Source: Candidatus Omnitrophota bacterium (lineage in GTDB: Bacteria; Omnitrophota; Gorgyraeia; Gygaellales; Profunditerraquicolaceae). Taken from it: a stretch of 64,000 nt of DNA. The notes beneath the pieces were generated by a model, which saw only the letters and a program-made list of their open reading frames with translations, was not told where the DNA came from and searched no databases. Shown in pieces: positions 1 through 35,776 of this stretch. Numbering within the stretch: position 1 is the stretch's first letter; each line of letters opens with the position of its first letter. The stretch covers positions 5,260-69,259 of the forward strand of contig JALOCB010000003.1 in assembly GCA_023227985.1 (NCBI GenBank), written 5' to 3'. The translations under genes were made by a program, and so were the position numbers.

Positions 1-579
1 AGAATGATCCAGCGTCTGGCTATTAATAATGGTACTGCCCACGGCAATAACTATGACGCTGACGGTAAACTTATTGAAACACAGATGAATTTGAAGATGA
101 CCGCGGCGATCGCCGAAGTTATTAAGGCGTATGGTATACAGATAGTCCAGCACGGCGTGACCGGAACGCCTATTAAAAATCTCCAGGCATTGCGTAATGT
201 CGGGATCAGGGCCGCTCATGTCGGGACCAATTGGCAGAATATTATTTGGGAAACTTTAGTTGCCCAGGCGCAGGCGGGTAATTCGACCGCTAAGTCCATA
301 GTAAACCGGATGATCGATGCGACTATCGCTAAGACTGCGGACGTGGAGAAGAAGTATAAAGTATCCGGCCGAAGCGCAGAAGCCAAGGATAGCGTTTATG
401 TCCCGGGAAAAGACAAGAACCTGGACAAGCTGATCGGTAAAGAATTAAAGATGGTATTAGGTGTTTTCAACGACGAGTTGGTTGCTCTTCCTGATGACTT
501 GATTGCCAAGATTGATGAGGCCACCGAAAAATCCGCTACCGAGCATATGCTGGGTTTCGGTTCTGACGGAACAGCCCAG
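1..579 (+). other. Domain: class II FBA, C-terminal two-thirds (N-terminal part lies upstream of the window)
   Basis: LAINNGTAHG and IVQHGVTG match the two His-containing metal-ligand strands. GFGSDGTA matches the conserved FGSxGKA C-terminus of class II aldolases. Confidence 0.75.
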
Positions 580-3500
580 ATGGTAAAGGATGATTATGCG
601 GTTCAGGGGTTGGTTTATCCTGAAGATTTCTCCTCGATCAAAGGATTATATGCCTTTAAGGCGCTCGAAGGAACGGATAAGACGATTATGTGTTGTAATA
701 TACGTTCGCCTCTAAGCATTAGGGGTATTATGCGCGCGGCCCAAAAAACAGGCAGCGTGGTTATTTTTCAGCAGGCAATGAGCGAATTCGATTATACCTG
801 GAAAGGCGGCTATGCCCCGGAGAATGCGGCTAAGCTTGCCCGTAATATCAAAGAAGCTGCAAAAAAAGAAAATTTCCACGATTTCATGATTAAGGGCGAT
901 CATCTTACGGTTAAAGTTGATGATGCTTTCTTGAAGGATAAGGCGGCGCAGGATGCTGTTGCTGTGGTATTTGAGAAAATATTGGATGAACAGGATGTTT
1001 CCAAGCGGGAAGCATTGTTCAACGCTGCATCCAAAGACGAAGTTCTTTTAGCCAATGCCGGCGTAGCTAAAGCAATGAAAGCGGTAAATAAGGCTATGAC
1101 CTTGATCAAAGAAGAAGTTGCTTCGGATTTCACTGTTTTTGCTTTAGACGCGTCATTTATGCCTACCAGGCTTAATGTCCTGGTCAGCGCTTACCTGGCG
1201 GGGTTTATTCCCCAGGATGCAGGTTTGGAAGCTGAAGTTGGCGAGATTGGCGGAAAAGAAAATTCCACGGTTGCCGACGCGTTGGAATTCATTACCGGTA
1301 TCAGGTTCAAGGAAGAGGTTGTGGTCAGCCAGGGAGTGAAATATTCTCAGCTGGTCGGTCCGAGAAGGATCGGTGTTCTTACCGGCGGCGGACCTGCTTC
1401 CGGGCATAACGCGGTGATCGCGGCAATGGTCCGCGAAGCGGAGCAGCGGGGGATCGAGATCGTGGCTATCCCTGAAGGTTGGGCTGGTTTGACCAAGGAT
1501 GAAGTAGCCGCGCAAGCCAAGGTTATAACTATTAAAGATGTGGAAAAGTGGGGGAAGAAAGGCGGCACAATGCTGGGGACCAGCCGCACCAATCCGTATA
1601 AGAAAGAAGGGGACGCCCAGAAGGTTTGGGATAATATCCAGAAGTTAAAGCTTGACGGTCTGGTAACTCTCGGCGGTGATGATACCAACGGGGTTACTTC
1701 CAAACTGCAAAAAGAACATCCGGATTACTTATTCATTGGTCTGCCTAAGACCATGGATAATGATATAGCGCTTCCGGAGAGTGACGCGCAGACCTATGGT
1801 TTTGACAGCTTTACCGTCAAGGCCTCTGAATCGTTCGAGGCTGGAAAGATTGACGCGCAATCTACCCATAGGATACTGATCGCTGAAGTTTTTGGAAGGG
1901 CGGCCGGATTCGTTTCTGCGCGTATCGGGGCCAATATAGGGGCTACCCGCACACTGATCCCTGAAGAATTGGTTGATCTTTCAAAGTTAGTCGAGGATCT
2001 GCGCAGCTATTATAAGAATAATAAATACGGGGTTGTTGTGGTTGCCGAAGGGGCAAGCGTCAATGTTGATGGTTTCAAACTGGATGAAAACGGGGAATTG
2101 ACAGTTGTTAAGCCCGAAGACCCGGATGTAAAATTGTTGCTGGCCGCATTTAAGAGCGATCCTATGGCCAAAGCGGCTTTTATCAAGTCTATGAAAGCCG
2201 AGATGGATGATTTTGGCCACAAAAAACTGGAGAATGTCGGTCTTATTGTCGCAGCTGTGGTAAAAACCGCGTTAAAGGCGGATAAGATCGATATTAGCTT
2301 CGCCGGTAAAGCGGATTATCTTTTTCGCTCCGCCGATGTTTCCAAATTGGACGCTGAAATGACCACTATGCTGGGGAAGGCCGCTGTGGAGAAGATCGCG
2401 GATATCCAGAATGATCAGTTGCTTTACGCTTACAAGGGGCAGATTAAATCCATACCGTTTGCCCGGGAATTAGGCGGAAGGGTCCTGGATTACAAAGGCG
2501 CCCATAAAGATGAATATATGTTGGCCAACCTGGCGCTTATTGATGAAAAAACTGAAATAACGCTTTCGGATGCATCGGTTAATGAGGACTTGTTCCAGGC
2601 AGCGGTTAGAAACTTAAAAGGACTTAACCCGGGCGAATTAATGACTCTGAGTTTTTCGGAGATGAAGGTTTTGTTATGGAAGCTTAATAGCCTTGATCAA
2701 GAAACCGGGGACAATCAGGAAGTAGTTCAGTCTGTCAGAAGGATTCTGCATAGGATAGACGACAGGCAGATAGAACAGGTCAAGAAATTTGCCAATATCG
2801 GCGTGTTTGCCCGAGAAAATACTGCGTATAACCTGGAATCAGTGCTTAAGGATGACAATATCCTGGTTATCGCGGCTAACGCGCTTATTTTTCGCGCCGG
2901 AGCCTTTGCCGAATTCTATCATAATTGGGAGCCGGGAGTTAACCTCGCGGCGATCAAGTCTATGAAAGGCGGCAAAGAAGCTACTGCCGAGGAATTTGTC
3001 CGGCAGAACAGCCGTTATAACGGACCTTTTAGCCCGTATCAGTTAAAAGGTTTGCGCGTGCTTAAGGATGAACGCCGGGTGATTGATGGTGTCGCTGTTA
3101 ATTTCATTTTCGTGCCCGCGGATAAGAATATCGGAAGGCCGGATATCAAGATACCATATTTCGGCCCGGAAACAACTAACCAGCAGGTGCTTGATACTAT
3201 GAAGGCCTTAGGTTTAGAGTTGGATGTCATGGCCTATTACGGCCCGACCAGCGAAACGGTTCAGCCCAGGATATTCAAGGAGTTCATTGAGGCTGGATTG
3301 CCTGTTGTAGCAGCTTCTCCGGTCAACACCGACGCTGTAAAAAATATGCTCAAAGCTAAGTTTCAGCAGGAAGGTGTTGCGGATGATATGCTGGATGAAG
3401 CGGTGAGTAAGGCTTTTAAGGAAGGTTTGTATTCCGCTACCCGTAAAGAAATCGGCGCGGATGTCAAGATCGTGGATACTTTAAGCTGCACTTCCAATGC

Positions 3501-4767
3501 CATGATTTCGGTTATTAAAGCAATGTGGGATAAGTTCGGTATCGATCATGGTACCGGCCTGACTATTCATTCCCAGACTGATTCCAATGAGACTTTCCCG
3601 ATGAAAAGCGGCAGGGCCAGGGATCCCCTGGATATCGCCCGCGGCGATTCCATCCGTGACAACATAATCCCTGCTTCAACCGGCGCAAAAAAGAACCTCT
3701 TTAAGATGATCCCGGAATTAAAAGGCAGGTTCGAGATCACCGCTGTTCGCACCGGTACTGTTTCGGCTTCGACCTGGGAGATGACCATGGACCTTAAGAC
3801 TGAAGTGACCAGGGATGATGTCCTTGCGGCTTTAAAGGATTTCGCCCTGAATAAGACCGACGGGGTGGTGAAATTTCACGAAGGAGACCCGGACAGGAAT
3901 CCCGGGCCTCTGGACGCCAACGCCGTGGTCGGCTGGAATAATGTTTCTATTATCGACAGTTTATTGATCAATGTTCTGGATAATAAGAAAACAGTGACTA
4001 TTAAAGGTTTGTATGATAACCAATCAGCGGCGCCGAATCAAATGGTTTCTAAATGGTCGCCGTGGATGGTTGACGGTTTAAGGCTGCGCCAGATAGTCGG
4101 CGAAAAGAACAGCAAAAAGCTGAACAAAGCCGAAGCTGTAGCGTATGCCAAACTCAACGCCGGTTATGCCGGCCTGCTTAAAGCCGTAAGCGCGGTAAAA
4201 ACCAGCGGAGCTCTGGTGGTCAGCGCTGACGTGGTCTTAAAGAACGCCGGGACGCTTTCATCGCTCAAAGCCTTGAAAGAATCAGGCGCTCTTATTGAGA
4301 TCATTGTCCAGGCGAACAACAAGGCTGTCGCTGATAAAATGGTATCAATGGGCGTTGAACAATTCGCGAGCATTCAGTTCAAGCAGGTTAACGCGATAGT
4401 AGAAGAGTTGAATACCAAAGGTATAACTGATGAAAGAATAGTAGTGCTTAAGACCAAAGCTGAATCGAAAGAAGAAGTCAAGAATACCGTCAAGGTGGTC
4501 AATGTCGGCGAAGCTAAAGTCGCCGAATCTTCTGTTAATGCCATGTCGATAGCAGTGGCAAAGGCAGTAACCACCGTGTTGCAGGATAATACGGAGGTTG
4601 TTGATCAATATCAGCAGATGGCGAAGAATTACGCCGAAGCTAACGACGTCGAGCTAAGCAAACTGGAAGATCTGACCAGCCAGATCTCGGATATGCCGCT
4701 GGTTAAGGTGAGCGAAGAAGTGGTCAAGGCTCAGGTTACTTACGAAGAAACTGTAAACAAGATCTAA
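1..4767 (+). CDS. Giant glycolytic fusion protein 1 (5' partial, frame open to window edge): class II fructose-bisphosphate aldolase + truncated aldolase-like copy + PPi-type 6-phosphofructokinase + GAPDH-like + shared C-terminal module
   Basis: Uninterrupted frame from nt 1 to TAA at 4765-4767. Motifs: LAINNGTAHG, IVQHGVTG, GFGSDGTA (FBA II); GVLTGGGPASGHN, LGGDDTNG, PKTMDNDI (PFK-A family); SCTSNAM, IIPASTGAKK (GAPDH). Confidence 0.85.
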   Translation, partial: RMIQRLAINNGTAHGNNYDADGKLIETQMNLKMTAAIAEVIKAYGIQIVQHGVTGTPIKNLQALRNVGIRAAHVGTNWQNIIWETLVAQAQAGNSTAKSIVNRMIDATIAKTADVEKKYKVSGRSAEAKDSVYVPGKDKNLDKLIGKELKMVLGVFNDELVALPDDLIAKIDEATEKSATEHMLGFGSDGTAQMVKDDYAVQGLVYPEDFSSIKGLYAFKALEGTDKTIMCCNIRSPLSIRGIMRAAQKTGSVVIFQQAMSEFDYTWKGGYAPENAAKLARNIKEAAKKENFHDFMIKGDHLTVKVDDAFLKDKAAQDAVAVVFEKILDEQDVSKREALFNAASKDEVLLANAGVAKAMKAVNKAMTLIKEEVASDFTVFALDASFMPTRLNVLVSAYLAGFIPQDAGLEAEVGEIGGKENSTVADALEFITGIRFKEEVVVSQGVKYSQLVGPRRIGVLTGGGPASGHNAVIAAMVREAEQRGIEIVAIPEGWAGLTKDEVAAQAKVITIKDVEKWGKKGGTMLGTSRTNPYKKEGDAQKVWDNIQKLKLDGLVTLGGDDTNGVTSKLQKEHPDYLFIGLPKTMDNDIALPESDAQTYGFDSFTVKASESFEAGKIDAQSTHRILIAEVFGRAAGFVSARIGANIGATRTLIPEELVDLSKLVEDLRSYYKNNKYGVVVVAEGASVNVDGFKLDENGELTVVKPEDPDVKLLLAAFKSDPMAKAAFIKSMKAEMDDFGHKKLENVGLIVAAVVKTALKADKIDISFAGKADYLFRSADVSKLDAEMTTMLGKAAVEKIADIQNDQLLYAYKGQIKSIPFARELGGRVLDYKGAHKDEYMLANLALIDEKTEITLSDASVNEDLFQAAVRNLKGLNPGELMTLSFSEMKVLLWKLNSLDQETGDNQEVVQSVRRILHRIDDRQIEQVKKFANIGVFARENTAYNLESVLKDDNILVIAANALIFRAGAFAEFYHNWEPGVNLAAIKSMKGGKEATAEEFVRQNSRYNGPFSPYQLKGLRVLKDERRVIDGVAVNFIFVPADKNIGRPDIKIPYFGPETTNQQVLDTMKALGLELDVMAYYGPTSETVQPRIFKEFIEAGLPVVAASPVNTDAVKNMLKAKFQQEGVADDMLDEAVSKAFKEGLYSATRKEIGADVKIVDTLSCTSNAMISVIKAMWDKFGIDHGTGLTIHSQTDSNETFPMKSGRARDPLDIARGDSIRDNIIPASTGAKKNLFKMIPELKGRFEITAVRTGTVSASTWEMTMDLKTEVTRDDVLAALKDFALNKTDGVVKFHEGDPDRNPGPLDANAVVGWNNVSIIDSLLINVLDNKKTVTIKGLYDNQSAAPNQMVSKWSPWMVDGLRLRQIVGEKNSKKLNKAEAVAYAKLNAGYAGLLKAVSAVKTSGALVVSADVVLKNAGTLSSLKALKESGALIEIIVQANNKAVADKMVSMGVEQFASIQFKQVNAIVEELNTKGITDERIVVLKTKAESKEEVKNTVKVVNVGEAKVAESSVNAMSIAVAKAVTTVLQDNTEVVDQYQQMAKNYAEANDVELSKLEDLTSQISDMPLVKVSEEVVKAQVTYEETVNKI
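586..1308 (+). other. Domain: second class II aldolase-like segment, truncated after the EAEVGEIGG strand
   Basis: IMCCNIRSPLSIRGIMRAAQKTGSVVIFQQ, IKGDHL, FALDASFMP and LEAEVGEIGGKE follow the order of FBA II strands 1-6. The GTxHG and HGxSG strands are absent before the PFK domain starts. Confidence 0.55.
1357..2493 (+). other. Domain: 6-phosphofructokinase, PPi-dependent type
   Basis: RIGVLTGGGPASGHN, GGDDT (nt 1672-1686; Asp where ATP-PFKs have Gly), PKTMDNDI, VVVAEGA, DDFGHKKL. Confidence 0.8.
2851..4083 (+). other. Domain: glyceraldehyde-3-phosphate dehydrogenase-like
   Basis: Catalytic-Cys motif SCTSNAM (Cys codon 3487-3489), LTIHSQTD, NIIPASTGAKK, PELKGRFEITAVRTGTVSAS. The N-terminal dinucleotide loop is degenerate (ILVIAANALIFRAG instead of INGFGRIGR). 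Confidence 0.7.
4156..4764 (+). other. Shared C-terminal module, copy 1 (alpha/beta-looking part plus conserved helical tail)
   Basis: Aligns over about 200 aa with the C-terminus of ORF 4926..12698. 25 of the last 34 residues are identical, and a 20-nt stretch ctgaccagccagatctcgga is identical at 4672-4691 and 12603-12622. Confidence 0.8.
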
Positions 4768-4773
4768 CATTCT

Positions 4774-4828
4774 CAAGACCCGGTCTTGCATCCCAATGAG
4801 TCCTAATGGGTTGCAAGACCGGGTCTTG
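4774..4828 (+). repeat. Intercistronic inverted repeat / RNA hairpin: perfect 17-bp arms, 21-nt loop
   Basis: CAAGACCCGGTCTTGCA (4774-4790) is the exact reverse complement of TGCAAGACCGGGTCTTG (4812-4828). Each 15-nt core is itself palindromic. Confidence 0.8.
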
Positions 4829-4925
4829 AACATGTCTTTATATGAATAAGATAAATCCGTTTCAATTTAAAAACCGCAACAGGCAGAAGTTGTAATTTAA
4901 TTCAAATCATCAACCGGAGGGAAAA

Positions 4926-5156
4926 ATGTTCGTAAGGTTATCCCAAAACAACCTGTTCAGGAAGATCGTCGGCATTCTTATTCTTTTACAATTTTCAGCC
5001 GGTTTTGCCGTGATTAGGGGTTATGCTGCTCCCGGAAATTTGCGGCCTGCCGCCGTCAAACAGGATGGTTCCCGGTCCGGGACTATCCAGAATTCGCTTG
5101 ACGCGGCCAGCCTGGATAAGGTTATAAAAACCCCGGTCATTCATAAGGACGGCGGT
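4926..5156 (+). other. Shared N-terminal leader, copy 1 (basic N-terminus, hydrophobic stretch, RGYAAPGNLRPAAVK, then KDGG)
   Basis: Position-by-position alignment with the N-terminus of ORF 12779..17302. Confidence 0.75.
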
Positions 5157-11100: not shown

Positions 11101-12698
11101 TTGTCCATCTTTTGGGAAGCCTCAACTGTGTTGATTTCTTTAATATGAAAGGCGGTTTCCTGGTTGAACAGGTCAATCCCAACCCTGATTACGGCATTCT
11201 TGGAGCGGCGCGCGCAATAGGGGATATGTGGGAGATAAACCGCATGGAATTGTCCGCTTTTAAGGCGGTATGGGATAATCTGCCGGTTGACCAGCGCGGT
11301 AATTTTGGCCTGCAGATCACCAATCTCAAAGGCACCCAGTCCGGCGCGGTGGTGATCGGCTGGCGTAATATTCTGAAACAAACCGGTATTATCCCGGGGC
11401 AAGACGGTTTGCAGGTTGGCGTCAATATCGTCACTCCGGCGGATAGCATCGCTGCGGATAAGTATTTTGAGTACTTTAATACGCTCGGAAGCGGGTTAAG
11501 TTTTATCTCATATGATGCGTTGAAGCTTGGCGCTGCCTGGGCCGGCGTGGATATTTTTTGGAAGGAATGGAGGAGGCTGGCTAAGGAAGATGAGTTGTTG
11601 AGGTTCGGCGTCATGACCGGCTGGATGGCGGAAGCCAAGGCTCTGAGGTTCGGCGGCAAAGTCCTTTCCTTTGATATTTCTGACGAAGCCAAACAGACTG
11701 ACGGCGGCGCTGAGGTTGTGCCTTACCGGGTAGTGGTGGAGAATCTCTTCCGGGGGATCATTAAGAAATATGATGCTTTGGATAACGGCCAAGCTCTTTC
11801 TCTCGAAAAAGAAGAGTTGGAGGCAATACTCTGGATCTTGAATTCTTCTCCTTTTGAGAATATGTCAAGCCCGTTTGCCGCGATCAAGAGTATGAAGAAT
11901 ATCAGGAATGTGATCGAAAGGCTCAGCGATGACCAAAAGAAGGCCCTAAGTGTACTTTCACAGGGCTTGGTTTTTGTCAATCACGGGCTGGATAAAAAGG
12001 TGGCGGCATTGCTCGTAGACAAGAAGTTGCTCGACACCGCATATGAATCCGACACGGCGGTATATAAAGGGTTGAACAGCGGTTTTGACAGCTTCGCCAA
12101 TGCCTTGAAAGAGGTTAAGAATGCCGAGGGCGCTTTAGTGGTTAGCGCAAATGCTGTGTTGAATAACGCCGGAACGCTGAGAGTCCTGAGAGAAATAAAA
12201 GAAACCGGGCTGACCTTGGAAATAATCGTCCGGGCTGATACGGAAGATCAGGTGAATAAGCTGATTGCCCTTCGGGCAGACGAAGTCGCGACTATCCAGG
12301 CCAAGCGGCTGTCAGTTGTGCTCAGCGGCTTGAAGAACGCGGGTATAACCGATGGCAAGATAGTGGTGATTAAAGGCAAAGAAGAAGTAAAAGACGCGGT
12401 AGAAGCCGGCGTAAAGGTCGTAGAGATCTCCATGCCTAAAACAGAGGAGTCCAGTATCAACTCCATGGCCTTAGTTGCGGCAAAAGCGGTAATCATAGTG
12501 TTAAATGGTGAAGAAACGGTTGCCGCGCAATACCGGGAAATGGCGGTAAAATACGCCGCAGATAACAGCGTAACCTCTGAAGAATTGGATGATCTGCAGG
12601 ACCTGACCAGCCAGATCTCGGAGATACCCATGGCCAAGGTCAGCGAAGAAGTCGCTAAGGCGCAGGCCACTTATGAGGAGACTATAAGCAAGATATAA
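4926..12698 (+). CDS. Giant fusion protein 2: leader + PEP-utilising dikinase (PPDK/PpsA family) with large insertions + degenerate duplicate of its His and TIM-barrel domains + shared C-terminal module
   Basis: 2590-codon ORF with GGAGGG 4 nt upstream of the ATG. Motifs: LAGGKGLSLSVM, VAVRSSGTKEDI, GSQAGQSDTFLNV, IRGGDTCHAAIFCREQGIPAVTG (His codon 8133-8135), FFSFGTNDYSHL, SLCGEA. Confidence 0.85.
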   Translation: MFVRLSQNNLFRKIVGILILLQFSAGFAVIRGYAAPGNLRPAAVKQDGSRSGTIQNSLDAASLDKVIKTPVIHKDGGITGQDVFKNILGEYRVSSTINNLAFGTFVQGQIDLSSVQNREALVNNFGEIKSKDRFFTLEYAGIPLALVKKAETGEITVKKVVEDIASIPLNILSDNAEKLKTEGVTSSDILVRDFLILEKRSRIDITQCMTVEFGELRDYVYNLAKNVGQEKALEMASAFAGKATVDEAMAEVGEKAKQLGRDQAKDTGLALAGGKGLSLSVMSRVVDVPPGLNVTTTAYFKFVKDNKQVWEKIFNELQTLDTMDDQKRDVVTSEIRDVIKSAPIPEDIKAEVTAMYHQLSVIRFLAGKPSPAPVAVRSSGTKEDIHVKTWLPVSTGSQAGQSDTFLNVKGERDVLDKLRADWASLFTDRAVSYRDDATFLQFSGAIDFNGKTSQDVYWGIVAKLREYSKKLDKPEYNVYADLMSKVTSPNPGSVSLMNAMEEILRQESNPEMSNALAVLKKKAEEVVHPEQIGIDVVIMQMAKSYLAGVLFTVNPATKMAGVAQSLYKSWYMGDDSLVYRDAKTDIIQGTRPIVVSFDVAFGYGENVVGGKVNPDKFIMGTYDGESWFVIEKSKGNKLIQMKDVEEVIDLLKDKISEKGQRQLAMTVKDAIAYDEVGKRINGIMATKLYGIKYLKALEGKEESDKDKKARVQAIANEIADMVKNKVSEDEVVAFIKGNFEVVNRKGYKGIQEMALSGVVREVFEKVQQAQAETDRGMFKLSKQLGDMGKADTLIHMIKEVWENKEFTLSDRQAILDKLNLTNQELRNMSYLIRALVDNSFTSNYETTLTHQDTFTMTDDQAQYVARMGWAITEYYKDARDIEYAIEIDKTASSDKAVRLYVVDDLGNVQGMDNNGNLVTVKSEKDKARIKEAKLRLYNVQARPYTAEYLKVDVMRARTEADEKWLEENSPKAIASGTKGENATQGYVLVFDPNKDVAWHADQIRRLKAGDFTAEEKAQIMAMGFNPEEYGSGKEKQLSVILYLLEADPNHDPIMRLVDSVVTIRGGDTCHAAIFCREQGIPAVTGAGKVILNGQLLKTGDAVTVDANNGNIYEMPADAGARIPINYVKFKIKPYGIPGDDDNMPYPGIGQIIAAASAAQQNSPIMLAVDAVGNSLTRAEFKGEEIGINVYAGYGHYLLQQIKAGKIKEPVRVRVQELIQGKVPGAKRFVDNIENVMAGAFAKDPAARSAYRDIMGKDFNKADSLQLLEFFDLKSDIELYGLDALKLVKQQVDILDLVPRLPENMYQTLEYLYGATQRRLNYDYNIIADLQNHPWILKEVDSKLAEKGYATFKEYITNEFLYFYNLMGFTIAPDQTAKNRAYDFAQDKIRGMPGSEVFSWPGVNPLVGLRGTSLEIEAFDEDFGGNQLVLDFLFDSVIQAHQNTGNQAWFYVFVRSSRELETLDKIIEHKAKQTGKLPKEIGIMIEVPSAALVADELAVKMSEMEKKYKKYGVEHTFFSFGTNDYSHLAGMGDREDPRMKLKIMDPAAIEAIGEMKAAGYYYDDAAKVLPLIDEGADVMQQLMETVVAAANGSSVATSLCGEAITALVNRGDYETAGKIMALLDSFGVSMMKVRLAASMTRVDTMAATKGITIPEAGRSILFDLSAGEVKQKKGVIKGEIIFVDNADDLVPNVLKGLQGPELTKKKEMFKLQSLENARSTMRTFNKIVIITKNLVAQQEPELVAEMGKAAFSKFVNDGLLKDIGNGQYVWTNLGVKTEKFNQELTIQGFSEKERKAIEGLWQKAWDNSIEGLERRGIDWDDLQYAKAIIVDADVNLDGWDVFRKDKSIIPTRIKATVKGISSRRAELEGQLATIDYAAKKVYKDFLSVEKIAAVLRSLPIPAEKPMITTQSAVAENANSVYQKIGYHPKLLLAYERNAVNELGKIFEEYVGKLVEEVEKVTQETDVQKRVWLLQKLQNKVGGLAEPMIKSFMSDVLSEAMRTGAVTLPDNWNKKLWEAYRSDLESEISKILNGKTVEQYFIAQFSEQMKEVLSANKGALVVHLLGSLNCVDFFNMKGGFLVEQVNPNPDYGILGAARAIGDMWEINRMELSAFKAVWDNLPVDQRGNFGLQITNLKGTQSGAVVIGWRNILKQTGIIPGQDGLQVGVNIVTPADSIAADKYFEYFNTLGSGLSFISYDALKLGAAWAGVDIFWKEWRRLAKEDELLRFGVMTGWMAEAKALRFGGKVLSFDISDEAKQTDGGAEVVPYRVVVENLFRGIIKKYDALDNGQALSLEKEELEAILWILNSSPFENMSSPFAAIKSMKNIRNVIERLSDDQKKALSVLSQGLVFVNHGLDKKVAALLVDKKLLDTAYESDTAVYKGLNSGFDSFANALKEVKNAEGALVVSANAVLNNAGTLRVLREIKETGLTLEIIVRADTEDQVNKLIALRADEVATIQAKRLSVVLSGLKNAGITDGKIVVIKGKEEVKDAVEAGVKVVEISMPKTEESSINSMALVAAKAVIIVLNGEETVAAQYREMAVKYAADNSVTSEELDDLQDLTSQISEIPMAKVSEEVAKAQATYEETISKI
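5688..6845 (+). other. Domain: dikinase N-terminal ATP-grasp (nucleotide-binding) region
   Basis: GGKGLSLS..VPPGLNVTT, VRSSGTKED, QAGQSDTFLNVKG, DRAVSYR, IDVVIMQM..AGVLFTVNP. Confidence 0.75.
7833..8270 (+). other. Domain: phosphohistidine swivel domain
   Basis: GTKGENATQGYVLVF ... ILYLLEADPNHDPIM ... TIRGGDTCHAAIFCREQGIPAVTGAG ... GDAVTVDANNGNIY. Confidence 0.8.
8343..9845 (+). other. Domain: PEP/pyruvate-binding TIM barrel
   Basis: NPLVGLRGTS, GIMIEVPSAAL, FFSFGTNDYSHL, SLCGEA. Confidence 0.75.
9918..11675 (+). other. Degenerate duplicate of the swivel and TIM-barrel domains; catalytic His and GTND motif lost
   Basis: GVIKGEIIFVDNADDL ... AKAIIVDADVNLDGWDVF ... GQLATIDYAAKKVY mirrors the swivel-domain layout without the His. 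EQVNPNPDYGILGAARAI, LQVGVNIVTPADSIAAD and LSFISYDALKLG mirror NPxLGxRG, MIEVPSAAL and FSxGTNDL. Confidence 0.5.
12078..12695 (+). other. Shared C-terminal module, copy 2
   Basis: EGALVVSANAVLNNAGTL..LEIIVRAD..ATIQ..GITDGKIVVIKGK...DLTSQISEIPMAKVSEEVAKAQATYEETISKI aligns with copy 1. Confidence 0.8.
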
Positions 12699-12703
12699 TA
12701 TAT

Positions 12704-12758
12704 TGAGGCCGGGTCTTGTAACCGATTCAAACGCAAGGGAATACAAGACCGGGTCTTG
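12704..12758 (+). repeat. Intercistronic hairpin, second copy: 17-nt arms, 21-nt loop, same core sequence
   Basis: TGAGGCCGGGTCTTGTA (12704-12720) pairs with TACAAGACCGGGTCTTG (12742-12758). As RNA, 16 of 17 positions pair: three DNA mismatches become G-U wobbles and one G-G mismatch remains. The loop length is identical to the 4774..4828 element. Confidence 0.7.
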
Positions 12759-12778
12759 ATAATTAGAGGAGGGAAAAG

Positions 12779-12961
12779 ATGTCCAGGCCGTCTAAAAACA
12801 ATAGTATCTCTAAAATAATTTCCGGCGTTGTGATCGCGCAATTTATCATGAGCAGTATAGCCCTGCGCGGTTATGCCGGCACAGACAATTTAAGGCCGGC
12901 TCCGGTCAAAGATTCCGACCGGATAAGCGTTCTGGCCGATGAATTGCAGAAAGACGGCGGC
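12779..12961 (+). other. Shared N-terminal leader, copy 2 (RGYAGTDNLRPAPVK ... KDGG)
   Basis: Aligns with 4926..5156. Confidence 0.75.
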
Positions 12962-15900
12962 AAACTGGCTGAATGGATCCATATCTTAGCGGAAAATACA
13001 ATTGTGGGCGATGCCGCTAAAGGTTCGAACGTCGGCATGGTCATACGGCTGGGAAAGCTTGTTGAAGAGAATATATCCGGGTCCATATTAGGGCATTCGG
13101 CAAACCGGAAGGCGTATATAAAGGAAGTGGGCGCTCAAATCGCTGAAGGGCTGCGTTTGACCGGAATGGAAGAAAAGGCGATCGCGGCTGCCAGCCGCAA
13201 GATAGCTTTTTCCAGATACGATAACATCATGAATCACCGGATCCAGGCGATGTTTCAAGCAGGGATCAGGGAGATCTGCCTTTGCGTAGGCAGTGATAAG
13301 GATAAGCTCACCGTTGAGGAAGAGATATCGGATGTGCTTGCGCAGTTGCAGGTGTCTTTTGCCGATGTCTCTTTGGAACAAATAAAAAAGATAATTTTCC
13401 ACGTGGCTTGGGAGCCTGCGGCGAATATCGGCACCGGTACTGCTGTCGGTCCGGAAAAGATCAAGCTGGTCCATCAGGCTATCTATGAATTCTTTGCCGA
13501 GAAGTATAATACACCCTCCGGGTATATCGGCGATGTTTGGGGGAAGTCATTGAAAATACTTTACGGCGCAAGCGTTGACGGAAAGAACGTCGACGGCATA
13601 ATGGCGGTGAAAGAGGATAAAGGCATGGCTTTGGTGCACGGCGTGTTATTCGCTTCTTCGGGTAAAAAGGCCGATGGCTTCCTGGCTGTGGCCGAGGGGG
13701 TTAGCCGCGCCGCGGAAAGGGATAACGCCCAGTATGTCTGTTTTGTCAACCTTAAGGAATTCGCCAGGGCTGAGAAAGATGAGGCTTTGACTTTTGTCGT
13801 CGAGATCGTCCGGGCCATTGCTTTAGGACGGATCGATCCCCGGCATACCATTCTGGCGATCGCTGACCAGGATGTACATCTAAAGGAGTGGCAGGACGCG
13901 ATCGTCGGCAGAAGCGTTTCGATGTCGGACGGCGGATACGCGTATGTTGAAGGAACGAACTTTAAGGACAAGAATGTGCTTTTTCGCCCGGATTATAACA
14001 CTCCGGCTTCGGTAAAGACCGATGATCAGGGTAATGTTTTGTCGATCAAAATATCCGACGCAAGCAGGATCGTTGATTCCTTCCCGGCTTTGACCAAGAT
14101 CCTGAAAGATAAGCCAAAACATGTGGTTGTCGTTGTCCATTTCGAACCTAAGGTGTTGAATCCCGCGACCGGTAAGAAAGACAAGAAAAATCTGTCTACT
14201 AAAGTCACAGCGGACAAACTTAAAGAATTGCTGCCGGCGGAATATAAAGATAAGGTAATATTCCTGGCTGATTCAGTCAATGACAATGGGATTGCCGCCG
14301 AAGCAATGCGGGCTATAGAAAGTTATACTGATTCCGAGATCATCGTATTGGAAAATATCCGTTTTGCCAAAGGCGAAAAGAAAGGTGCCCCCGAGCTTAA
14401 TGATCCTAAAGGTGTAGCTTTACGCAAACAGCTTTCAGGATTAGCGGACGAATATGTGGTGGATGCCTTGGGTAATATTCATCGCGCCCACGCATCAATG
14501 CTGCCTTTGCCCGGGGTGCATAAAGTCATGGGCAGTCTTGTGGAAAAAGAGATTAAAGTGTTCAACCGGATACTTAACCCGGCGCATCCTTATGCCGGGG
14601 TTAACGGCGGTAATAAGGTTGAAGATAAAGTGGATACCATGGATGTGTCTTTGTCGACGATGCAGGAAGGCGACGCGATCATCATCGGCGGGGCTATGGC
14701 CTACACTTTTTTAAAGGCGCAGGATCCAACATTGAAATTGGGCAAATCACTTGTTCAGGCGGATAAAGTTGATCTGGCTAAGACTATACTTGAGAAGGCC
14801 GCCCGGAAGAAGGTGCGGATAATCCTTCCAGTGGACCATCGCATCTCGGATAAACTCGCTCCCGGAGCAGCAGAATTGGTTACTGAGGGGCTGGAAGTGC
14901 CGGATGGGTACATGGCGGTAGATATCGGACCCAAGACTGAAAAAATAGTCGCCGAGGTCTTAAGTAATGCCCAGACCGCTTTTTGGAACGGCCCAATGGG
15001 CGCGTTCGAGGATGAGGCTGGTGGTTTTAATAAGGGGACTTATACGGTTGCCAGGGAACTGCAGAAAATGGGCAGGTCCGGACGCCTGGCCGGTATCGGC
15101 GGCGGGGAGACACGTATGGCAGCAATTAAGGCCGGGGTTACCGATGCTGACGGCGTGTTCATGTCCAGCGGCGGCGGTTCCACGCAGGAATATTTCGCCA
15201 AGAAAGGCAATCTCCCGGTGATCAAGAATCTGGAGAATGACGAAACCGCCCAGAAAAATCTCGTCCTCGCGGGGAAATTGGGGGTAGAACCCGCGGATCT
15301 GGCGCGTTTTGAAGCGGCAGACAGCAGTATTTATAATGCCTTGGGAGATAAACTTTTCAACGGCTATATATCTCAGGTCAGAAGGTTGCTTCCCAGGTTT
15401 TCGACAGGCCAGAAATTAAACGGCGCTCTGTCCAAAGCAGAGGTCTCTGCGGAGGTGATTAAAGATTCGCGCGGAAACAATACTGTCCGGGCAACTTTAA
15501 AGATCGGGGATATTGTTACTGTCGGCGAAGTCCCTGCAGGCGCTTCCAAAGGGGCAGCTGAGGCTTTTGCTTTTCCGCCGAAGGAAATAGATAGGGCGAT
15601 CGCCAACGTGGCGAAGATCCAGGAGATACTTAAGAACAGCGGCCTGGATATAAGCAAACACAGCGATCTGCGCAAGACGGAACAATTGATCATTGCCGCG
15701 GCCGGTGAAAACTTCGCGACACTGGGCGCGAACGCCACAGTCCCTATTTCCTGGGCCTTGTGGAGGATGGCGGCAGCGTTGAATAATATGGAACTCTGGG
15801 AATACATCCGGATCAATGAGCCGGGAGTTGTCGGTAATGATCCGGTTTATTTCTATATGAACATATATAACGGCGGGCTGCACGCTTCCGGAGGCGACGC

Positions 15901-17302
15901 TTCGGTATTGGGTACAGTTTGGACCGAATTCCAGGAGATGCTGATCGTGCCCGTGGGCGCTAAAACTCACGCCGAAGGCGTGGCTATGGGAGATAAGATC
16001 GACCAGGAATTGAAGAAAATACTGAAAGGTAAATTCGCGGAAGCGGATATAATGCGTAAAGATGAAGCTGGTTTCGCGGTCAAAGGCCTGGGAAAAAGCG
16101 AAGACGCGATCGCTTATGTGGTACAGGCGATCAGGAACGCCGGCTATGAGCCCGGTAAAGACGTAAAGCTGGCTTTGGATGTCGCCGCGACCTCTTTCTA
16201 CGACGAGAAAGAGAATATATACAAGTTCCAGGGCCAGAAATTGACCTCAGCCGAGATGGTCGATTTTTACGTCAAACTGGTAAAGCAATATGACGGCCTG
16301 TTCCTTTCTATAGAAGACGGCCTGGCTGAAGAAGATTGGCAGGGATGGGTAGAGCTAACCGCGGCTATGAAAGAAAAAGGCGTCCTGACTATAGGCGATG
16401 ATCTGTACGTTACCCAGCACGGCCGGTTGAACAAAGGGCTGGCGATGAACGCGGCTACAGCGATCCTGATCAAGGTTAATCAAAATGGGACCCTGGGCGG
16501 AACTATCGATGTTATGAAGACCGCCAAGGCCAATGGCATTAAAGCTGTGGTATCGCACCGTTCCGGAGAAACTCTGGATGCCGGGATCGCGGATCTGGCT
16601 TACGCAACCCGGGCGTTCGGGCTTAAAACCGGGGATCCTCAACCTTTGGTTGATTTCCAGAATCCGAACGAACTGGTGCGCCGGGCTAAGTATGACAGGA
16701 TGATCGAGATCCAGAAACAAGAAAACATCCAAAATGACCCGGCATTATCCAGGCCTAAAGCGCTGTTGATCAATGCGGATTTTTTCAAATCCGGCGCGGT
16801 TAAGAACGCTGTGGCGGAAATAGCGAGATTAAACGGGAATATCAATGTGGTGATCTACGGAGATAATGCCGAAAAGCTAAAGACGCTGGTAGGAAATCCC
16901 GATATTATCGCGGTGCGGAGTTTGACTGCAGCTGTCTCTGAAATAGCTAACCGCGGGGTAAAATCTTCTCAGGATGCCGTTATTTTGACGCCTATGCCGT
17001 ATAGCTCGGAAACGTTTATTGTTCAAATCCGCAGCGGAGAAATAAGCACGCTGGCTTTGGCCAAGGCGGTAAAGCAGTTATTCAAGAACGACCGGATCAC
17101 CGCGGCTATGGATGAATTCTATAAATCGCTGGTTGATAACAAAGTGGTTTCCGAGCAGGACTACATAAATACAAGGGAAAAAATCCTAACGGATCTGATC
17201 GACGGTGTTTACAACCTGGGTGAGATTAAGTTGACAAAACAGGTATCTGATGTTATAGAAAAGGAGCGGCTGGTAACCGAAGAGTTCGTGGGTAAAGTGT
17301 AA
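12779..17302 (+). CDS. Giant glycolytic fusion protein 3: leader + triosephosphate isomerase + phosphoglycerate kinase + enolase + divergent C-terminal module
   Basis: 1507-codon ORF with GGAGGG 5 nt upstream of the ATG. TPI: SILGHSANR, AWEPAANIGTG, ILYGASV. PGK: LFRPDYNTP, NIHRAHASM, IIGGAMAYTFLKAQ, FWNGPMGAFE. Enolase: IKDSRGNNTV, VPAGASKGAAEA, KDEAGFA, IEDGLAEEDW, IGDDLYVT, LIKVNQNG, SHRSGET. Confidence 0.88.
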   Translation: MSRPSKNNSISKIISGVVIAQFIMSSIALRGYAGTDNLRPAPVKDSDRISVLADELQKDGGKLAEWIHILAENTIVGDAAKGSNVGMVIRLGKLVEENISGSILGHSANRKAYIKEVGAQIAEGLRLTGMEEKAIAAASRKIAFSRYDNIMNHRIQAMFQAGIREICLCVGSDKDKLTVEEEISDVLAQLQVSFADVSLEQIKKIIFHVAWEPAANIGTGTAVGPEKIKLVHQAIYEFFAEKYNTPSGYIGDVWGKSLKILYGASVDGKNVDGIMAVKEDKGMALVHGVLFASSGKKADGFLAVAEGVSRAAERDNAQYVCFVNLKEFARAEKDEALTFVVEIVRAIALGRIDPRHTILAIADQDVHLKEWQDAIVGRSVSMSDGGYAYVEGTNFKDKNVLFRPDYNTPASVKTDDQGNVLSIKISDASRIVDSFPALTKILKDKPKHVVVVVHFEPKVLNPATGKKDKKNLSTKVTADKLKELLPAEYKDKVIFLADSVNDNGIAAEAMRAIESYTDSEIIVLENIRFAKGEKKGAPELNDPKGVALRKQLSGLADEYVVDALGNIHRAHASMLPLPGVHKVMGSLVEKEIKVFNRILNPAHPYAGVNGGNKVEDKVDTMDVSLSTMQEGDAIIIGGAMAYTFLKAQDPTLKLGKSLVQADKVDLAKTILEKAARKKVRIILPVDHRISDKLAPGAAELVTEGLEVPDGYMAVDIGPKTEKIVAEVLSNAQTAFWNGPMGAFEDEAGGFNKGTYTVARELQKMGRSGRLAGIGGGETRMAAIKAGVTDADGVFMSSGGGSTQEYFAKKGNLPVIKNLENDETAQKNLVLAGKLGVEPADLARFEAADSSIYNALGDKLFNGYISQVRRLLPRFSTGQKLNGALSKAEVSAEVIKDSRGNNTVRATLKIGDIVTVGEVPAGASKGAAEAFAFPPKEIDRAIANVAKIQEILKNSGLDISKHSDLRKTEQLIIAAAGENFATLGANATVPISWALWRMAAALNNMELWEYIRINEPGVVGNDPVYFYMNIYNGGLHASGGDASVLGTVWTEFQEMLIVPVGAKTHAEGVAMGDKIDQELKKILKGKFAEADIMRKDEAGFAVKGLGKSEDAIAYVVQAIRNAGYEPGKDVKLALDVAATSFYDEKENIYKFQGQKLTSAEMVDFYVKLVKQYDGLFLSIEDGLAEEDWQGWVELTAAMKEKGVLTIGDDLYVTQHGRLNKGLAMNAATAILIKVNQNGTLGGTIDVMKTAKANGIKAVVSHRSGETLDAGIADLAYATRAFGLKTGDPQPLVDFQNPNELVRRAKYDRMIEIQKQENIQNDPALSRPKALLINADFFKSGAVKNAVAEIARLNGNINVVIYGDNAEKLKTLVGNPDIIAVRSLTAAVSEIANRGVKSSQDAVILTPMPYSSETFIVQIRSGEISTLALAKAVKQLFKNDRITAAMDEFYKSLVDNKVVSEQDYINTREKILTDLIDGVYNLGEIKLTKQVSDVIEKERLVTEEFVGKV
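12962..13648 (+). other. Domain: triosephosphate isomerase
   Basis: Candidates for all three catalytic residues are present: Lys in VGDAAKGSN, His in GHSANR, Glu in WEPAANIGTG (Glu codon 13412-13414). The C-terminal FASSGKKADGF resembles GGASLKxxxF. Confidence 0.7.
13931..15223 (+). other. Domain: phosphoglycerate kinase
   Basis: KNVLFRPDYNTP, LENIRF, GNIHRAHASM, GGNKVEDK, IIGGAMAYTF, VDIGPKT, FWNGPMGAFE, SSGGGST. Confidence 0.8.
15431..16708 (+). other. Domain: enolase (paralog of the stand-alone eno at 30393..31658)
   Basis: Motifs as listed for the CDS. Ser of SHRSGET is at 16553-16555. Confidence 0.85.
16751..17299 (+). other. C-terminal module, divergent third copy
   Basis: ALLINADFFKSGAV..INVVIYGDN..IIAVRS..AVILTP followed by a helical tail. 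Same strand/helix rhythm as copies 1 and 2 but low identity. Confidence 0.4.
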
Positions 17303-18826: not shown

Positions 18827-19549
18827 ATGGACATAAAAGAACGCAGGCAGGCAATAAGGTGGCAAATAAACAGCCCCGGGCAAATTGTTCTGGAGGACTG
18901 CCGGGCGTTAGTTAATTGCACTATACTTGATATAAGTTACCGGGGGGTCCAGGTATTGCTGGATAAACCTCTGGAGAATACCAAGTTATTCAAGATCAGC
19001 GTCGTACTTTCCGAGGAGTGCTACCTGGACAGCATCGACCTGCGCAGCGTCTGGCACAGGAAGGTTCCGGAAGGCGAGCTTTACGGCTTGTATTTTAACC
19101 GCATAAAAGACATAGATAAAGAGAAGATCTACAAATTTGTCTTTAAGCACGCACCAAGGCAAATACATCAACAGTGGTGGCAGGAATCTGACAAGGGGGG
19201 GGGTGAATCAATGGAAGATATGGGGACCAACGACAAGAGAGTCTTTGCGCGGTTTCCGGTGCAGATGGCTTTGAAATTCATTGATCTATTATCCAACAGG
19301 GAAGGCCAGGCGCATGCTTATGATATCAGCGCCAAGGGTTTGGGATTTATGGCGACCGAGGAATTAAAACCGCTTACACCGTTGGAGATGTGGCTACAGG
19401 TCCCGGATAAAGGGGAGCCGCTTTATACCAGAGGTGAAGTAGTCTGGTCAGAGATGGTCGAACCTAATAAATACAAGGCCGGGATCAATCTGGAAAGAGC
19501 GGACCTGATGGGTGTTTCCCGGGTTTTAAGGACCCTCAATACGATATAG
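18827..19549 (+). CDS. Tandem PilZ-domain protein (putative c-di-GMP receptor)
   Basis: Two RxxxR ... DxSxxG pairs: RRQAIRW/LDISYRG and KRVFARF/YDISAKG. Confidence 0.65.
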   Translation: MDIKERRQAIRWQINSPGQIVLEDCRALVNCTILDISYRGVQVLLDKPLENTKLFKISVVLSEECYLDSIDLRSVWHRKVPEGELYGLYFNRIKDIDKEKIYKFVFKHAPRQIHQQWWQESDKGGGESMEDMGTNDKRVFARFPVQMALKFIDLLSNREGQAHAYDISAKGLGFMATEELKPLTPLEMWLQVPDKGEPLYTRGEVVWSEMVEPNKYKAGINLERADLMGVSRVLRTLNTI

Positions 19550-19679
19550 TCTTGAGCTCAAGATCCCCACAGTAATAAAAGCCTTGACCAGGCAATTAAC
19601 CTGTGTTAAATTCGAATATTGTCTTCATTAGCCATTTCTGTAATATTCTGTTATCTCGTTCATATTTAGGAGGGGAATA

Positions 19680-20996: not shown

Positions 20997-21006
20997 GGTT
21001 TAGCCA

Positions 21007-21921: not shown

Positions 21922-21925
21922 AAAA

Positions 21926-25086: not shown

Positions 25087-25217
25087 TGGTCTCGCGCTGA
25101 GACCTTTAGATATATGGGAGAAGAAAGGGGGTGTTTCAGGCAAATACGCTAACCTGCTTTCCGGCAAGACTTAAAAATAAGCGGAACAAAATATAATATA
25201 ACAAAGGAGGAGTAAAG

Positions 25218-30126: not shown

Positions 30127-31688
<1,562 letters not shown>

Positions 31689-35774: not shown

Positions 35775-35776
35775 AA

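Follow-up and report, generated by a model that had tools for sequence, protein, structure and literature searches.

Glycolytic enzyme domains are encoded as three consecutive giant proteins with shared end pieces in an uncultured Omnitrophota bacterium

An uncultured Omnitrophota bacterium encodes seven of the enzymes that turn fructose-6-phosphate into pyruvate as three consecutive giant proteins, each with a similar secretion-signal-like start and a homologous non-enzymatic end piece, suggesting that glycolysis here is probably run by one physically assembled machine and not by free enzymes. The three co-directional ORFs lie in a 64,000-nucleotide stretch of contig JALOCB010000003.1 (GCA_023227985.1), the whole of which we refer to as the window, and they encode FBA-PFK-GAPDH (ORF1), a PEP-utilising dikinase (ORF2) and TPI-PGK-enolase (ORF3). 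ORF1 is cut at its 5’ end; its frame is open from base 1 (the ORF list places it at 4..4767) and comprises 1588 codons, while ORF2 and ORF3 encode 2590 and 1507 aa. The ORFs are separated by gaps of 158 and 80 nt, and GGAGGG lies at 4916-4921, 4 nt before the ATG of ORF2, and at 12768-12773, 5 nt before the ATG of ORF3. The coordinates of the features are collected in the table.

Table. Features of the glycolytic operon and of related genes in the window, with the supporting evidence.
Position	Strand	Feature	Evidence
1..4767	+	ORF1, 5’-truncated by the window edge (full length 1673 aa): leader, permuted class II FBA, PPi-type PFK, linker, GAPDH, C-terminal module	Pfam and NCBIfam searches; full-length protein P0021 at 100% identity
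1..570	+	FBA segment A: C-terminal third of a canonical class II aldolase (LAINNGTAHG, IVQHGVTG, VGTNW), placed first	PDB alignment, query 92-141 matches FBA 194-241; BLAST to unpermuted paralogs
610..1356	+	FBA segment B: N-terminal two-thirds of a canonical class II aldolase (GDHL, FALDASF, EAEVGEIGG), placed second	PDB alignment, query 424-496 matches FBA 93-165; order B then A, contiguous, in P0034, P0035, P0036, P0045, P0047, P0049 and P0050 (E 1e-57 to 1e-81)
1363..2469	+	Phosphofructokinase domain with GGDDT and PKTMDND (PPi-type determinants)	PF00365, E 2.8e-55; NCBIfam PFK_mixed and PPi-PFK models
2578..2865	+	~100-aa linker module, also present before the C-terminal module of ORF2	BLASTP, ORF1 860-955 against ORF2 2270-2369, E 9e-6; recurs before GAPDH in other family members
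2866..4050	+	GAPDH domain with catalytic Cys (SCTSN) and His (TIHSQT); atypical nucleotide-binding loop (VIAANALIFRAG in place of GxGxxG)	PF02800, E 2e-19; PDB alignment to 1hdg; family alignment
4093..4764	+	C-terminal module (type A) of ORF1, non-catalytic alpha/beta domain	
4767..4835	+	Intercistronic stem-loop built from two copies of the palindrome AAGACCSGGTCTT	dG -44.4 kcal/mol, z -10; motif search
4926..12698	+	ORF2: leader, PEP synthase-like dikinase with large insertions, second degenerate PEP-binding barrel, linker, C-terminal module	Pfam and NCBIfam searches; PDB alignment; hhalign
4926..5156	+	ORF2 leader: n-region, hydrophobic core, RGYA/A, NLRP, KDGG	Sequence; similarity to the ORF3 leader; family statistics
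5709..6977	+	Dikinase nucleotide-binding domain (PPDK_N)	Pfam, E 1.4e-53; PDB 9dae_A and 2ols_A (PEP synthase)
7989..8336	+	Dikinase swivelling phospho-histidine domain (GGDTCHAAI)	PF00391, E 2e-14; PDB alignment
9060..9875	+	Dikinase PEP/pyruvate-binding TIM barrel (FGTND, LCGE)	PF02896; PDB alignment
11013..11570	+	Second, divergent PEP-utilizer_C-like barrel; GTND replaced by ISYDA, probably non-catalytic	hhalign against the first barrel, probability 99.2%, E 3e-19
12024..12695	+	C-terminal module (type A) of ORF2	Sequence comparison
12696..12765	+	Second intercistronic stem-loop, homologous to the first	dG -28.5 kcal/mol, z -6.3; alignment
12779..17302	+	ORF3: leader, permuted TPI, PGK, enolase, C-terminal module	Pfam and NCBIfam searches; homologues
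12956..13912	+	Circularly permuted triosephosphate isomerase: beta3-beta8 first (GHS, WEP), then beta1-beta2 (NLK)	
13946..15274	+	Phosphoglycerate kinase domain	PF00162, E 1e-86, profile 3-377 of 379
15440..16720	+	Enolase domain, catalytic and metal residues all aligned to the stand-alone enolase	Pfam; TIGR01060, 300.9 bits; 36% identity to the stand-alone paralog
16736..17299	+	C-terminal module (type B), homologous to type A	hhalign 96%, E 3.7e-9
17400..18701	+	ORF4: conserved exported protein of unknown function, probable partner of the system	Conserved position in relatives; ~270-aa domain shared with the N-terminus of glycolytic megaproteins P0034 and P0045, E 1e-32; signal peptide
30393..31682	-	Stand-alone canonical enolase, paralog of the ORF3 enolase domain, without leader or module	Pfam, E 2e-124
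47544..48830	+	Stand-alone ApgM-type cofactor-independent phosphoglycerate mutase without leader or module; candidate supplier (inferred) of the one step missing from the megaproteins	PF10143 and PF01676; N-terminus

We first attempted to verify the preliminary description of this locus, which had read seven glycolytic domains and their signature motifs by eye, and its observation held. The profile searches it had set as a test confirmed every domain named: F_bP_aldolase, PFK and Gp_dh_C in ORF1; PPDK_N, PEP-utilizers and PEP-utilizers_C in ORF2; and TIM, PGK, Enolase_N and Enolase_C in ORF3. The motifs GGDDT, SCTSN, GGDTCHAAI and FGTND were all present. ORFs of 1500-2600 codons in DNA of 49% GC cannot arise by chance, and the same ORF lengths recur in independent assemblies, which excludes frameshifts and chimeric assembly. 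The same three-gene operon, followed by the same downstream genes, was found in JGI 3300027958 (ORF3 at 42% identity) and JGI 3300075153 (71%), and the operon also occurs in NCBI GCA_028711865.1 and in a Logan assembly.

The interpretation given in the preliminary description was only partly supported. The hard-wiring of the steps from fructose-6-phosphate to pyruvate, minus phosphoglycerate mutase, into three conserved polypeptides was supported, as was the PPi-type character of the PFK determinants, and a physical metabolon remains a reasonable inference. The suggestion that hexokinase or PGI could lie in the missing 5’ part of ORF1 was not supported: the full-length counterpart (P0021) adds only an 85-aa leader, leaving no room for either enzyme. 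The proposed aldolase plus truncated aldolase-like copy are instead the two halves of one circularly permuted class II aldolase, since the C-terminal third precedes the N-terminal two-thirds, while paralogs at about 50% identity keep the canonical order. The preliminary description also missed the shared leader, the shared C-terminal module, the permutation of the TPI, and the stand-alone enolase and iPGM of the window.

We further analyzed each domain for the residues expected of its family. In P0021 the aldolase carries the Zn-ligand histidine motifs, the catalytic Asp-His (HLDH-type) and the GTsHG- and lHGgSG-type motifs (IKGDHLTV, NNGTAHGNNY and IVQHGVTG), aligned to the PDB aldolases 7nc7 and 7ncc. 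The PFK carries Asp in GGDDT (TLGGDDTNG) and Lys in PKTMDND (GLPKTMDNDI), where ATP-dependent enzymes have Gly; the PPi-PFK model NF041103 scored 177 bits and the PFK_mixed model TIGR02483 scored 189 bits, both below their cut-offs, and use of PPi as phosphoryl donor is only inferred. In the GAPDH domain SCTSN, TIHSQT and AVRTGT align to 1hdg, providing the catalytic Cys-His pair and the substrate-phosphate-binding Arg, but the GxGxxG loop is absent and no PF00044 hit was obtained; VIAANALIFRAG is conserved in ORF1-type proteins, while P0041, another family member, keeps GINGPGRVGR. In the TPI the catalytic residues (Lys in N265-L-K267, H47 and E153) are invariant in an alignment of 14 sequences, although the canonical strand order beta1 to beta8 is not kept. 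The PGK matches the full two-lobe profile, with its HLGRP motif altered to HFEPK, and its activity is a prediction from sequence. The enolase retains the Mg ligands (D, E, D), the catalytic K, E, K and H and the loop Ser, and scored just above the TIGR01060 cut-off of 300.

The dikinase of ORF2 has its three domains in the expected order, with the catalytic His and the GTND and CGE motifs. It had been called PPDK, which was not supported: the PEP synthase models TIGR01418 and NF005057 scored 261 and 277 bits, against 71 bits for the PPDK model TIGR01828, and the top PDB hits were PEP synthases. The argument that pairs a PPi-dependent PFK with PPDK is therefore unproven. The best matches across all three domains were the multimeric archaeal PEP synthase (PDB 9dae, 24 chains) and bacterial PpsA (2ols), from which ORF2 differs by insertions of about 160, 340 and 240 residues, the extra degenerate barrel, the leader and the C-terminal module; its 277 bits are below the equivalog cut-off of 598.

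The degenerate second barrel, the loss of the GAPDH Gly-rich loop and the NCBIfam scores of most domains below their equivalog cut-offs raise the possibility of non-enzymatic or moonlighting scaffold proteins, or of an assembly or frameshift artefact. We consider this very unlikely, as the catalytic residues of TPI, enolase, GAPDH, FBA, PGK and the first dikinase barrel are conserved across homologs down to about 40% identity and identical ORF structure is seen in at least five independent assemblies.

Comparison of the chain ends revealed that all three proteins begin with a Sec-signal-like leader (AXA site, then LRP and KDGG motifs), the ORF2 and ORF3 leaders being similar in sequence. By inspection, the leaders show a tripartite n-h-c layout with small residues at -1 and -3, conserved across divergent homologs (MAAA/G, RGYA/A, RGYA/G, VHA/A and AYA/G, the slash marking the putative site), albeit with a long h-region of 17 to about 23 residues. 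All three proteins end in a homologous ~200-aa non-catalytic alpha/beta module, for which the structural model is confident (pLDDT 94.5) and shows a HAD-like fold; the motif-I DxDx(T/V) nucleophile of HAD phosphatases is not conserved. Among 1.84 billion representative proteins the module occurs in only 206 clusters, nearly always at the extreme C-terminus and mostly on glycolytic enzymes. The other domains of these proteins are PGK, enolase, TPI, PFK, GAPDH, dikinase, FBA, iPGM and GPI, plus a few sugar-related enzymes, although about half of the module-bearing proteins that did not match the window’s own domains had no Pfam hit. Of 136 full-length module proteins, 111 have the hydrophobic leader, and 102 of these also have the LR motif. 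The last residue is I or V in 133 of 157 module proteins, often preceded by K or R.

We evaluated the possibility that the chains are polyprotein precursors cut into ordinary single enzymes, for example at recurring DGG motifs, leaving no covalent metabolon in the mature state. KDGG closes every leader, and DGG recurs at the TPI-PGK junction of ORF3 (residue 384) and after the second barrel of ORF2 (residue 2259), at equivalent positions in the 42%-identity orthologs; a preprint also proposes post-translational cleavage for Omnitrophota giant proteins (bioRxiv 10.1101/2023.11.21.568195). However, most domain junctions have no DGG (ORF1 has only the leader copy and there is none between PGK and enolase), the count per protein is close to the chance expectation of 0.6-0.9, no protease domain is present in these proteins, and a single module per chain would leave most released enzymes untagged. 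We therefore consider this reading doubtful.

Our preferred explanation, which we hold to be more likely than not, is that this is a genuine, conserved Omnitrophota operon for multi-enzyme glycolytic proteins, inferred from sequence to be catalytically competent, with a PEP synthase-like dikinase that would make pyruvate and ATP from PEP. The leader-plus-module frame, which occurs across the phylum mostly on single or fused glycolytic enzymes, would be a pathway-specific assembly or targeting tag. In this view the leader takes each chain to the cytoplasmic membrane, and the C-terminal modules, perhaps with the ORF4 protein, hold the chains together, although there is no direct evidence that the modules bind each other. 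Fructose-6-phosphate to pyruvate would then run on one membrane-associated supercomplex next to the sugar importers encoded downstream, with phosphoglycerate mutase supplied by a separate protein. ORF4 is linked in Rosetta-stone fashion to other glycolytic megaproteins, and a sugar ABC transporter and glycoside hydrolases lie directly downstream. The fusions, their conservation, the intact catalytic residues, the permuted barrels and the shared, pathway-restricted end pieces are established by our analysis, whereas assembly through the module, membrane association, substrate channelling, enzymatic activity, the phosphoryl donor of the PFK, the direction, cofactor and phosphoryl acceptor of the dikinase, and the cleavage and topology of the leader are inferred. 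The canonical enolase in the window also raises the possibility that the megaproteins are a paralogous, specialised set and not the cell’s only glycolysis.

The side of the membrane on which such a complex would sit may be either, as the leaders resemble cleavable Sec signal peptides of bona fide exported proteins in the window. The megaproteins might thus work in the periplasm, on the cell surface or at a predator-prey interface, or the module might act as a second-step secretion or sorting signal, as in two-signal secretion systems. This alternative, which we regard as possible but less likely, is consistent with neighbouring genes for exported proteins (ORF4, a lipoprotein solute-binding protein and glycoside hydrolases), with a gene for a 26,119-aa giant protein directly upstream in a near-identical contig, with the leaderless enolase, which would fit two compartments, and with the preprint’s prediction that glycolytic domains of Omnitrophota giant proteins are extracellular. 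On the other hand, GAPDH, PGK, PFK and the dikinase need NAD+, ADP, PPi and AMP, which are cytoplasmic pools not expected outside; the only PGM seen in the window, needed between the PGK and enolase domains of ORF3, has no leader; the authors of the preprint themselves doubted the extracellular prediction; and the module fold is unlike known secretion C-terminal domains.

The preliminary description knew of no equivalent, which is only partly true. The 2023 preprint on ‘archaeovorins’ lists TPI, GPI, FBPase, PGM, FBA and dikinase domains inside very large Omnitrophota proteins predicted to be membrane-anchored or extracellular, but the parts we consulted do not mention the operon, the shared C-terminal module or the permuted barrels. 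The present proteins are 1.5-2.6 thousand residues long, consist almost wholly of glycolytic enzymes, and were found to contain none of the HEAT repeat, glycosyltransferase and TPR domains reported as most frequent in archaeovorins; they are only neighbours of a giant gene, the last 2743 residues of whose product contain neither the module nor glycolytic domains. The PGK-TIM fusion of Thermotoga maritima also joins PGK and TPI covalently, and the model NF010569 (‘bifunctional phosphoglycerate kinase/triosephosphate isomerase’) was the best NCBIfam match of ORF3, but at 336 bits against a cut-off of 883; in ORF3 the order is reversed, the TPI is permuted, and enolase, a leader and a module are added. 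The TPI-GAPDH fusion of stramenopile mitochondria likewise carries an N-terminal targeting sequence, but is eukaryotic, pairwise and uses an organelle import signal, compared to three chains with seven enzymes in a bacterium. In the kinetoplastid glycosome most glycolytic enzymes carry a common terminal tag that brings them to one place, but this is a peroxisome-derived eukaryotic organelle with PTS1/PTS2 import machinery, whereas no compartment is known in Omnitrophota and the tag here is a 200-aa folded domain. Cellulosome dockerin-cohesin assembly and microcompartment encapsulation peptides also use a shared terminal non-catalytic element for assembly, but there is no sequence or fold relation, and no shell or scaffoldin genes were found in the window.

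Whether glycolytic enzymes form a physical metabolon has been debated for decades, mostly on weak, transient interactions. In this lineage evolution has made the association covalent and has tagged nearly every glycolytic enzyme with the same two end pieces, providing a natural system for testing channelling directly. The locus also supplies natural circular permutants of two textbook TIM-barrel enzymes, with unpermuted aldolase paralogs for comparison, which is useful for protein-folding and design work. For annotation, these genes are currently named after a single enzyme (‘6-phosphofructokinase’, ‘phosphoglycerate kinase’, ‘enolase’), such that fusions of this kind can go unnoticed. A more speculative reading, which we regard as tentative, is that the leader-plus-module frame is a dedicated sorting and assembly system for glycolysis, a bacterial counterpart of the glycosome idea, that would place nearly the whole Embden-Meyerhof pathway outside the ordinary cytoplasm of these ultra-small, possibly predatory cells, in the periplasm, in a membrane-bounded compartment or at the contact site with prey; the permutation of the TIM-barrel enzymes would have been selected to make head-to-tail concatenation sterically possible. 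If the leaders really export the proteins, central energy metabolism would be located outside the cytoplasm, and that would change how Omnitrophota, and ultra-small or predatory bacteria generally, are understood.

The window opened inside a plus-strand reading frame (ORF1), which was followed by two further large plus-strand ORFs (ORF2 and ORF3), with gaps of only 158 and 80 nt and a GGAGGG sequence located 4 nt before the ORF2 ATG and 5 nt before the ORF3 ATG. We attempted to verify the domains that had been read by eye in the preliminary description by a Pfam search, and every one of them was confirmed: F_bP_aldolase, PFK (E 3e-55) and Gp_dh_C in ORF1; PPDK_N (E 1e-53), PEP-utilizers and PEP-utilizers_C in ORF2; and TIM, PGK (E 1e-86), Enolase_N and Enolase_C (E 1e-64) in ORF3. 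The observation of glycolytic enzyme domains fused into three consecutive giant polypeptides was therefore upheld. We further analyzed the segments without a domain by Pfam at relaxed thresholds (ORF2 residues 1-265, 684-1022, 1137-1379 and 1640-2365, the ORF1 linker, the C-terminal modules and ORF4), but recovered nothing credible. The coordinates of these and the other features are collected in the table.

Positions of the features described in this section (window coordinates unless a contig is named)
Feature	Position	Strand	Detail
ORF1	to 4767, open at the window start	+	1588 codons
ORF1 GAPDH N-terminal domain, nucleotide loop	~3000-3040		
First intercistronic stem-loop	4767-4835		dG -44.4 kcal/mol; z -10
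ORF2	4926-12698	+	2590 aa
Second PEP-binding barrel of ORF2	11013-11570		ORF2 residues ~2030-2215
DGG after the second barrel of ORF2	~11700		ORF2 residue 2259
Second intercistronic stem-loop	12696-12765		dG -28.5 kcal/mol; z -6
ORF3	12779-17302	+	1507 aa
DGG at the TPI-PGK junction of ORF3	~13928		ORF3 residue 384
ORF4	17400-18701	+	433 aa
Carbohydrate-uptake cluster	18827-29303	+	
Stand-alone canonical enolase	30393-31682	-	Pfam E 2e-124
Rnf operon	34986-39767	-	
Stand-alone ApgM-type phosphoglycerate mutase	47544-48830	+	
Giant gene and 509-aa gene upstream of ORF1	1-9968 of locus L006 (contig JAQTRK010000008.1), upstream of the window start	same as ORF1	26,119 aa and 509 aa

We considered the possibility that the fusions resulted from frameshifts or chimeric assembly. 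ORF3 was 99% identical to an NCBI protein of a 'Candidatus Omnitrophota bacterium' MAG, and full-length homologs with the same TIM-PGK-enolase architecture were recovered from 86% down to 38% identity in JGI, ENA, NCBI and Logan assemblies. ORF1 was 100% identical (after rounding) to P0021, a protein of 1673 aa, and had ten homologs of 1672-1716 aa at 70-83% identity. The whole three-gene operon recurred in two other metagenomes, where it was followed by the same genes, namely an unknown ~400-aa protein, PilZ, a sugar ABC transporter, an MFS transporter and a TPR-glycosidase. In addition, contig JAQTRK010000008.1 of GCA_028711865.1 differed from the window by 12 of 14,767 bases. The identical ORF structure in independent assemblies excludes frameshifts and chimeras. 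A scan of genome contigs with the permuted-TPI alignment returned only three loci, too few for a taxonomic survey.

The preliminary description proposed that hexokinase or PGI could lie in the missing 5' part of ORF1. P0021 adds only 85 residues to the ORF1 of the window, and these form a leader with a basic start, a hydrophobic core, MAAA/G, NLRP and KDGG, leaving no room for either enzyme. In the 99.9%-identical contig JAQTRK010000008.1, the genes directly upstream of ORF1 on the same strand encode a 509-aa unknown protein and a giant protein of 26,119 aa; the last 2743 residues of the giant protein contained neither the C-terminal module nor glycolytic domains.

The reading of a class II FBA followed by a truncated FBA-like copy also had to be changed, as the two blocks are one aldolase whose C-terminal third comes first. 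PDB aldolases aligned to query residues 424-496 with their residues 93-165, and to query residues 92-141 with their residues 194-241. Paralogs at about 50% identity (P0034, P0035, P0036, P0045, P0047, P0049 and P0050) have the two blocks contiguous in the opposite, canonical order (E 1e-57 to 1e-81). In the related proteins P0038, P0043 and P0051 the two blocks lie about 450 residues apart (block A near residues 70-290, block B near 740-990), and these proteins carry a precomputed PF03320 (FBPase) hit; the FBPase may sit between the two halves. The TPI of ORF3 is circularly permuted as well. Pfam detected only profile positions 94-242 of this domain, and a 16-protein alignment showed AEN, GHS, CVGS, WEP..IGTG, YGASV and LVHG..ASSGKK followed by YVCFVNLKEF and AIADQD, that is, beta3 to beta8, then beta1 and beta2. 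The His, the Glu and the Asn-Leu-Lys were invariant in a 14-sequence alignment, and the AlphaFold model (pLDDT 89.4, pTM 0.90) had eight strands alternating with helices. The interpretation in the preliminary description was partly supported by these results.

To further characterize the other enzyme domains, we examined their catalytic motifs. The PFK has GGDDT and PKTMDND, the two positions that distinguish PPi- from ATP-dependent enzymes, although HMM scores did not separate the classes. The GAPDH retains the catalytic Cys and His and the phosphate-binding Arg, but the canonical GxGxxG NAD-binding loop is replaced by VIAANALIFRAG throughout the ORF1-type clade, whereas a related fusion (P0041) keeps GINGPGRVGR; cofactor use may differ. 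The enolase domain of ORF3 aligned residue for residue at all catalytic positions with the stand-alone canonical enolase of the window, at 36% identity; the latter has no leader or C-terminal module, and the organism therefore has two enolases. The dikinase of ORF2 fits PEP synthase far better than PPDK (PDB 9dae and 2ols) and contains three insertions of roughly 160-340 residues. ORF2 also contains a second, degenerate copy of the PEP-binding TIM barrel (hhalign 99.2%, E 3e-19) in which the catalytic GTND motif is replaced, and this domain also occurs without a dikinase in several module-bearing proteins (P0072, P0079, P0115 and P0148). Given the intact catalytic residues and the independent assemblies, we regard an artefact or a set of pseudo-enzymes as very unlikely.

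ORF2 and ORF3 share their first ~120 residues, and ORF1 has the same layout. By inspection, the leader pattern resembles the signal peptides of clearly exported proteins in the window. A profile of 24 C-terminal modules, searched against 1.84 billion representative proteins, found 206 clusters with E up to 1e-3 and 166 with E up to 1e-10, with the module at the very C-terminus in nearly all of them and protein lengths of 400-2800 aa. The other domains of these proteins were PGK, enolase, TPI, PFK, GAPDH, dikinase and FBA, as well as iPGM and GPI, and a few DHH, aldose-epimerase and UDP-glucose pyrophosphorylase domains. Both single-enzyme forms and other fusions occurred, for example PGK-GAPDH-TPI-enolase in P0133. 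Of 136 apparently full-length members, 111 have the hydrophobic leader and 102 of those also have the LR motif; most exceptions look like fragments. The last residue is I or V in 133 of 157.

We explored the possibility that the polypeptides are processed into single enzymes at DGG motifs. A DGG motif closes every leader and recurs at the TPI-PGK junction of ORF3 and after the second barrel of ORF2, at equivalent positions in orthologs of 42% identity, and could be a linker cap or a processing site. However, most domain junctions lack it, such that processing at DGG is possible but weakly supported, and DGG as a general cleavage site is considered weak.

The one lower-glycolysis step absent from the megaproteins is phosphoglycerate mutase. 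We found no RHG motif in the megaproteins, and a search of the module-bearing proteins for the GpmI motif also found nothing. The window encodes a stand-alone archaeal-type (ApgM) cofactor-independent phosphoglycerate mutase without a leader. In other Omnitrophota, GpmI-type mutases carry the leader and the C-terminal module (P0122, P0152 and P0196), and their Pfam segment order suggests that they too may be permuted.

Directly after ORF3 lies ORF4, a conserved exported protein of unknown function with a signal peptide, no known domain and no PDB match. About 270 of its residues match the N-terminal region of another class of glycolytic megaproteins, P0034 and P0045 (E 1e-32), which is a Rosetta-stone link to the system. 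Downstream lie PilZ, a sugar ABC transporter and glycosidases; the carbohydrate-uptake cluster next to the glycolytic operon comprises PilZ, a lipoprotein solute-binding protein, two permeases and several signal-peptide proteins with weak GH2-like barrels. The window also encodes a ROK protein and a complete Rnf operon (RnfC, D, G, E, A and B-like genes). Microcompartment or encapsulin targeting was considered and set aside because no shell genes are present in the window. Each intercistronic gap starts with a homologous, very stable stem-loop made of two copies of the palindrome AAGACCSGGTCTT spaced 40 nt apart; the three exact copies, plus one with 2 mismatches, lie in these two gaps. These could be mRNA processing or stability elements, or operator sites, but the palindrome is absent from the ortholog locus L001 and is therefore not a conserved feature of the operon.

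The proteins are present in public databases under single-enzyme names, and a 2023 preprint lists glycolytic domains in Omnitrophota giant proteins and doubts their predicted extracellular location. Two Omnitrophota genome papers discuss glycolysis but not fusions. In the literature searched on glycolysis, fusions and metabolons in Omnitrophota, we found no description of the operon, the shared module or the permuted barrels, although a prior description in Kizina et al. 2022 (PMC9004380), the paper most likely to mention it, cannot be excluded. Multi-enzyme fusions and metabolons are already known, and we regard the operon as a variant of these, with a substantial chance that the tagging system is something new.

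The results establish the fusions, their conservation and the intact catalytic residues, while catalysis itself, cofactor use, the function of the leader and the assembly of the chains are inferred from sequence and models. The main question is on which side of the membrane the products would sit: the leaders look like cleavable Sec signals, which favors export, whereas the cofactor needs and the leaderless phosphoglycerate mutase favor the cytoplasm, and we consider export possible but rather unlikely. A non-catalytic domain, predicted to be folded, and a leader both occur mostly on enzymes of one pathway. We read this as a pathway-specific assembly or targeting frame and, with moderate confidence, we take the products to form one membrane-associated glycolytic supercomplex.
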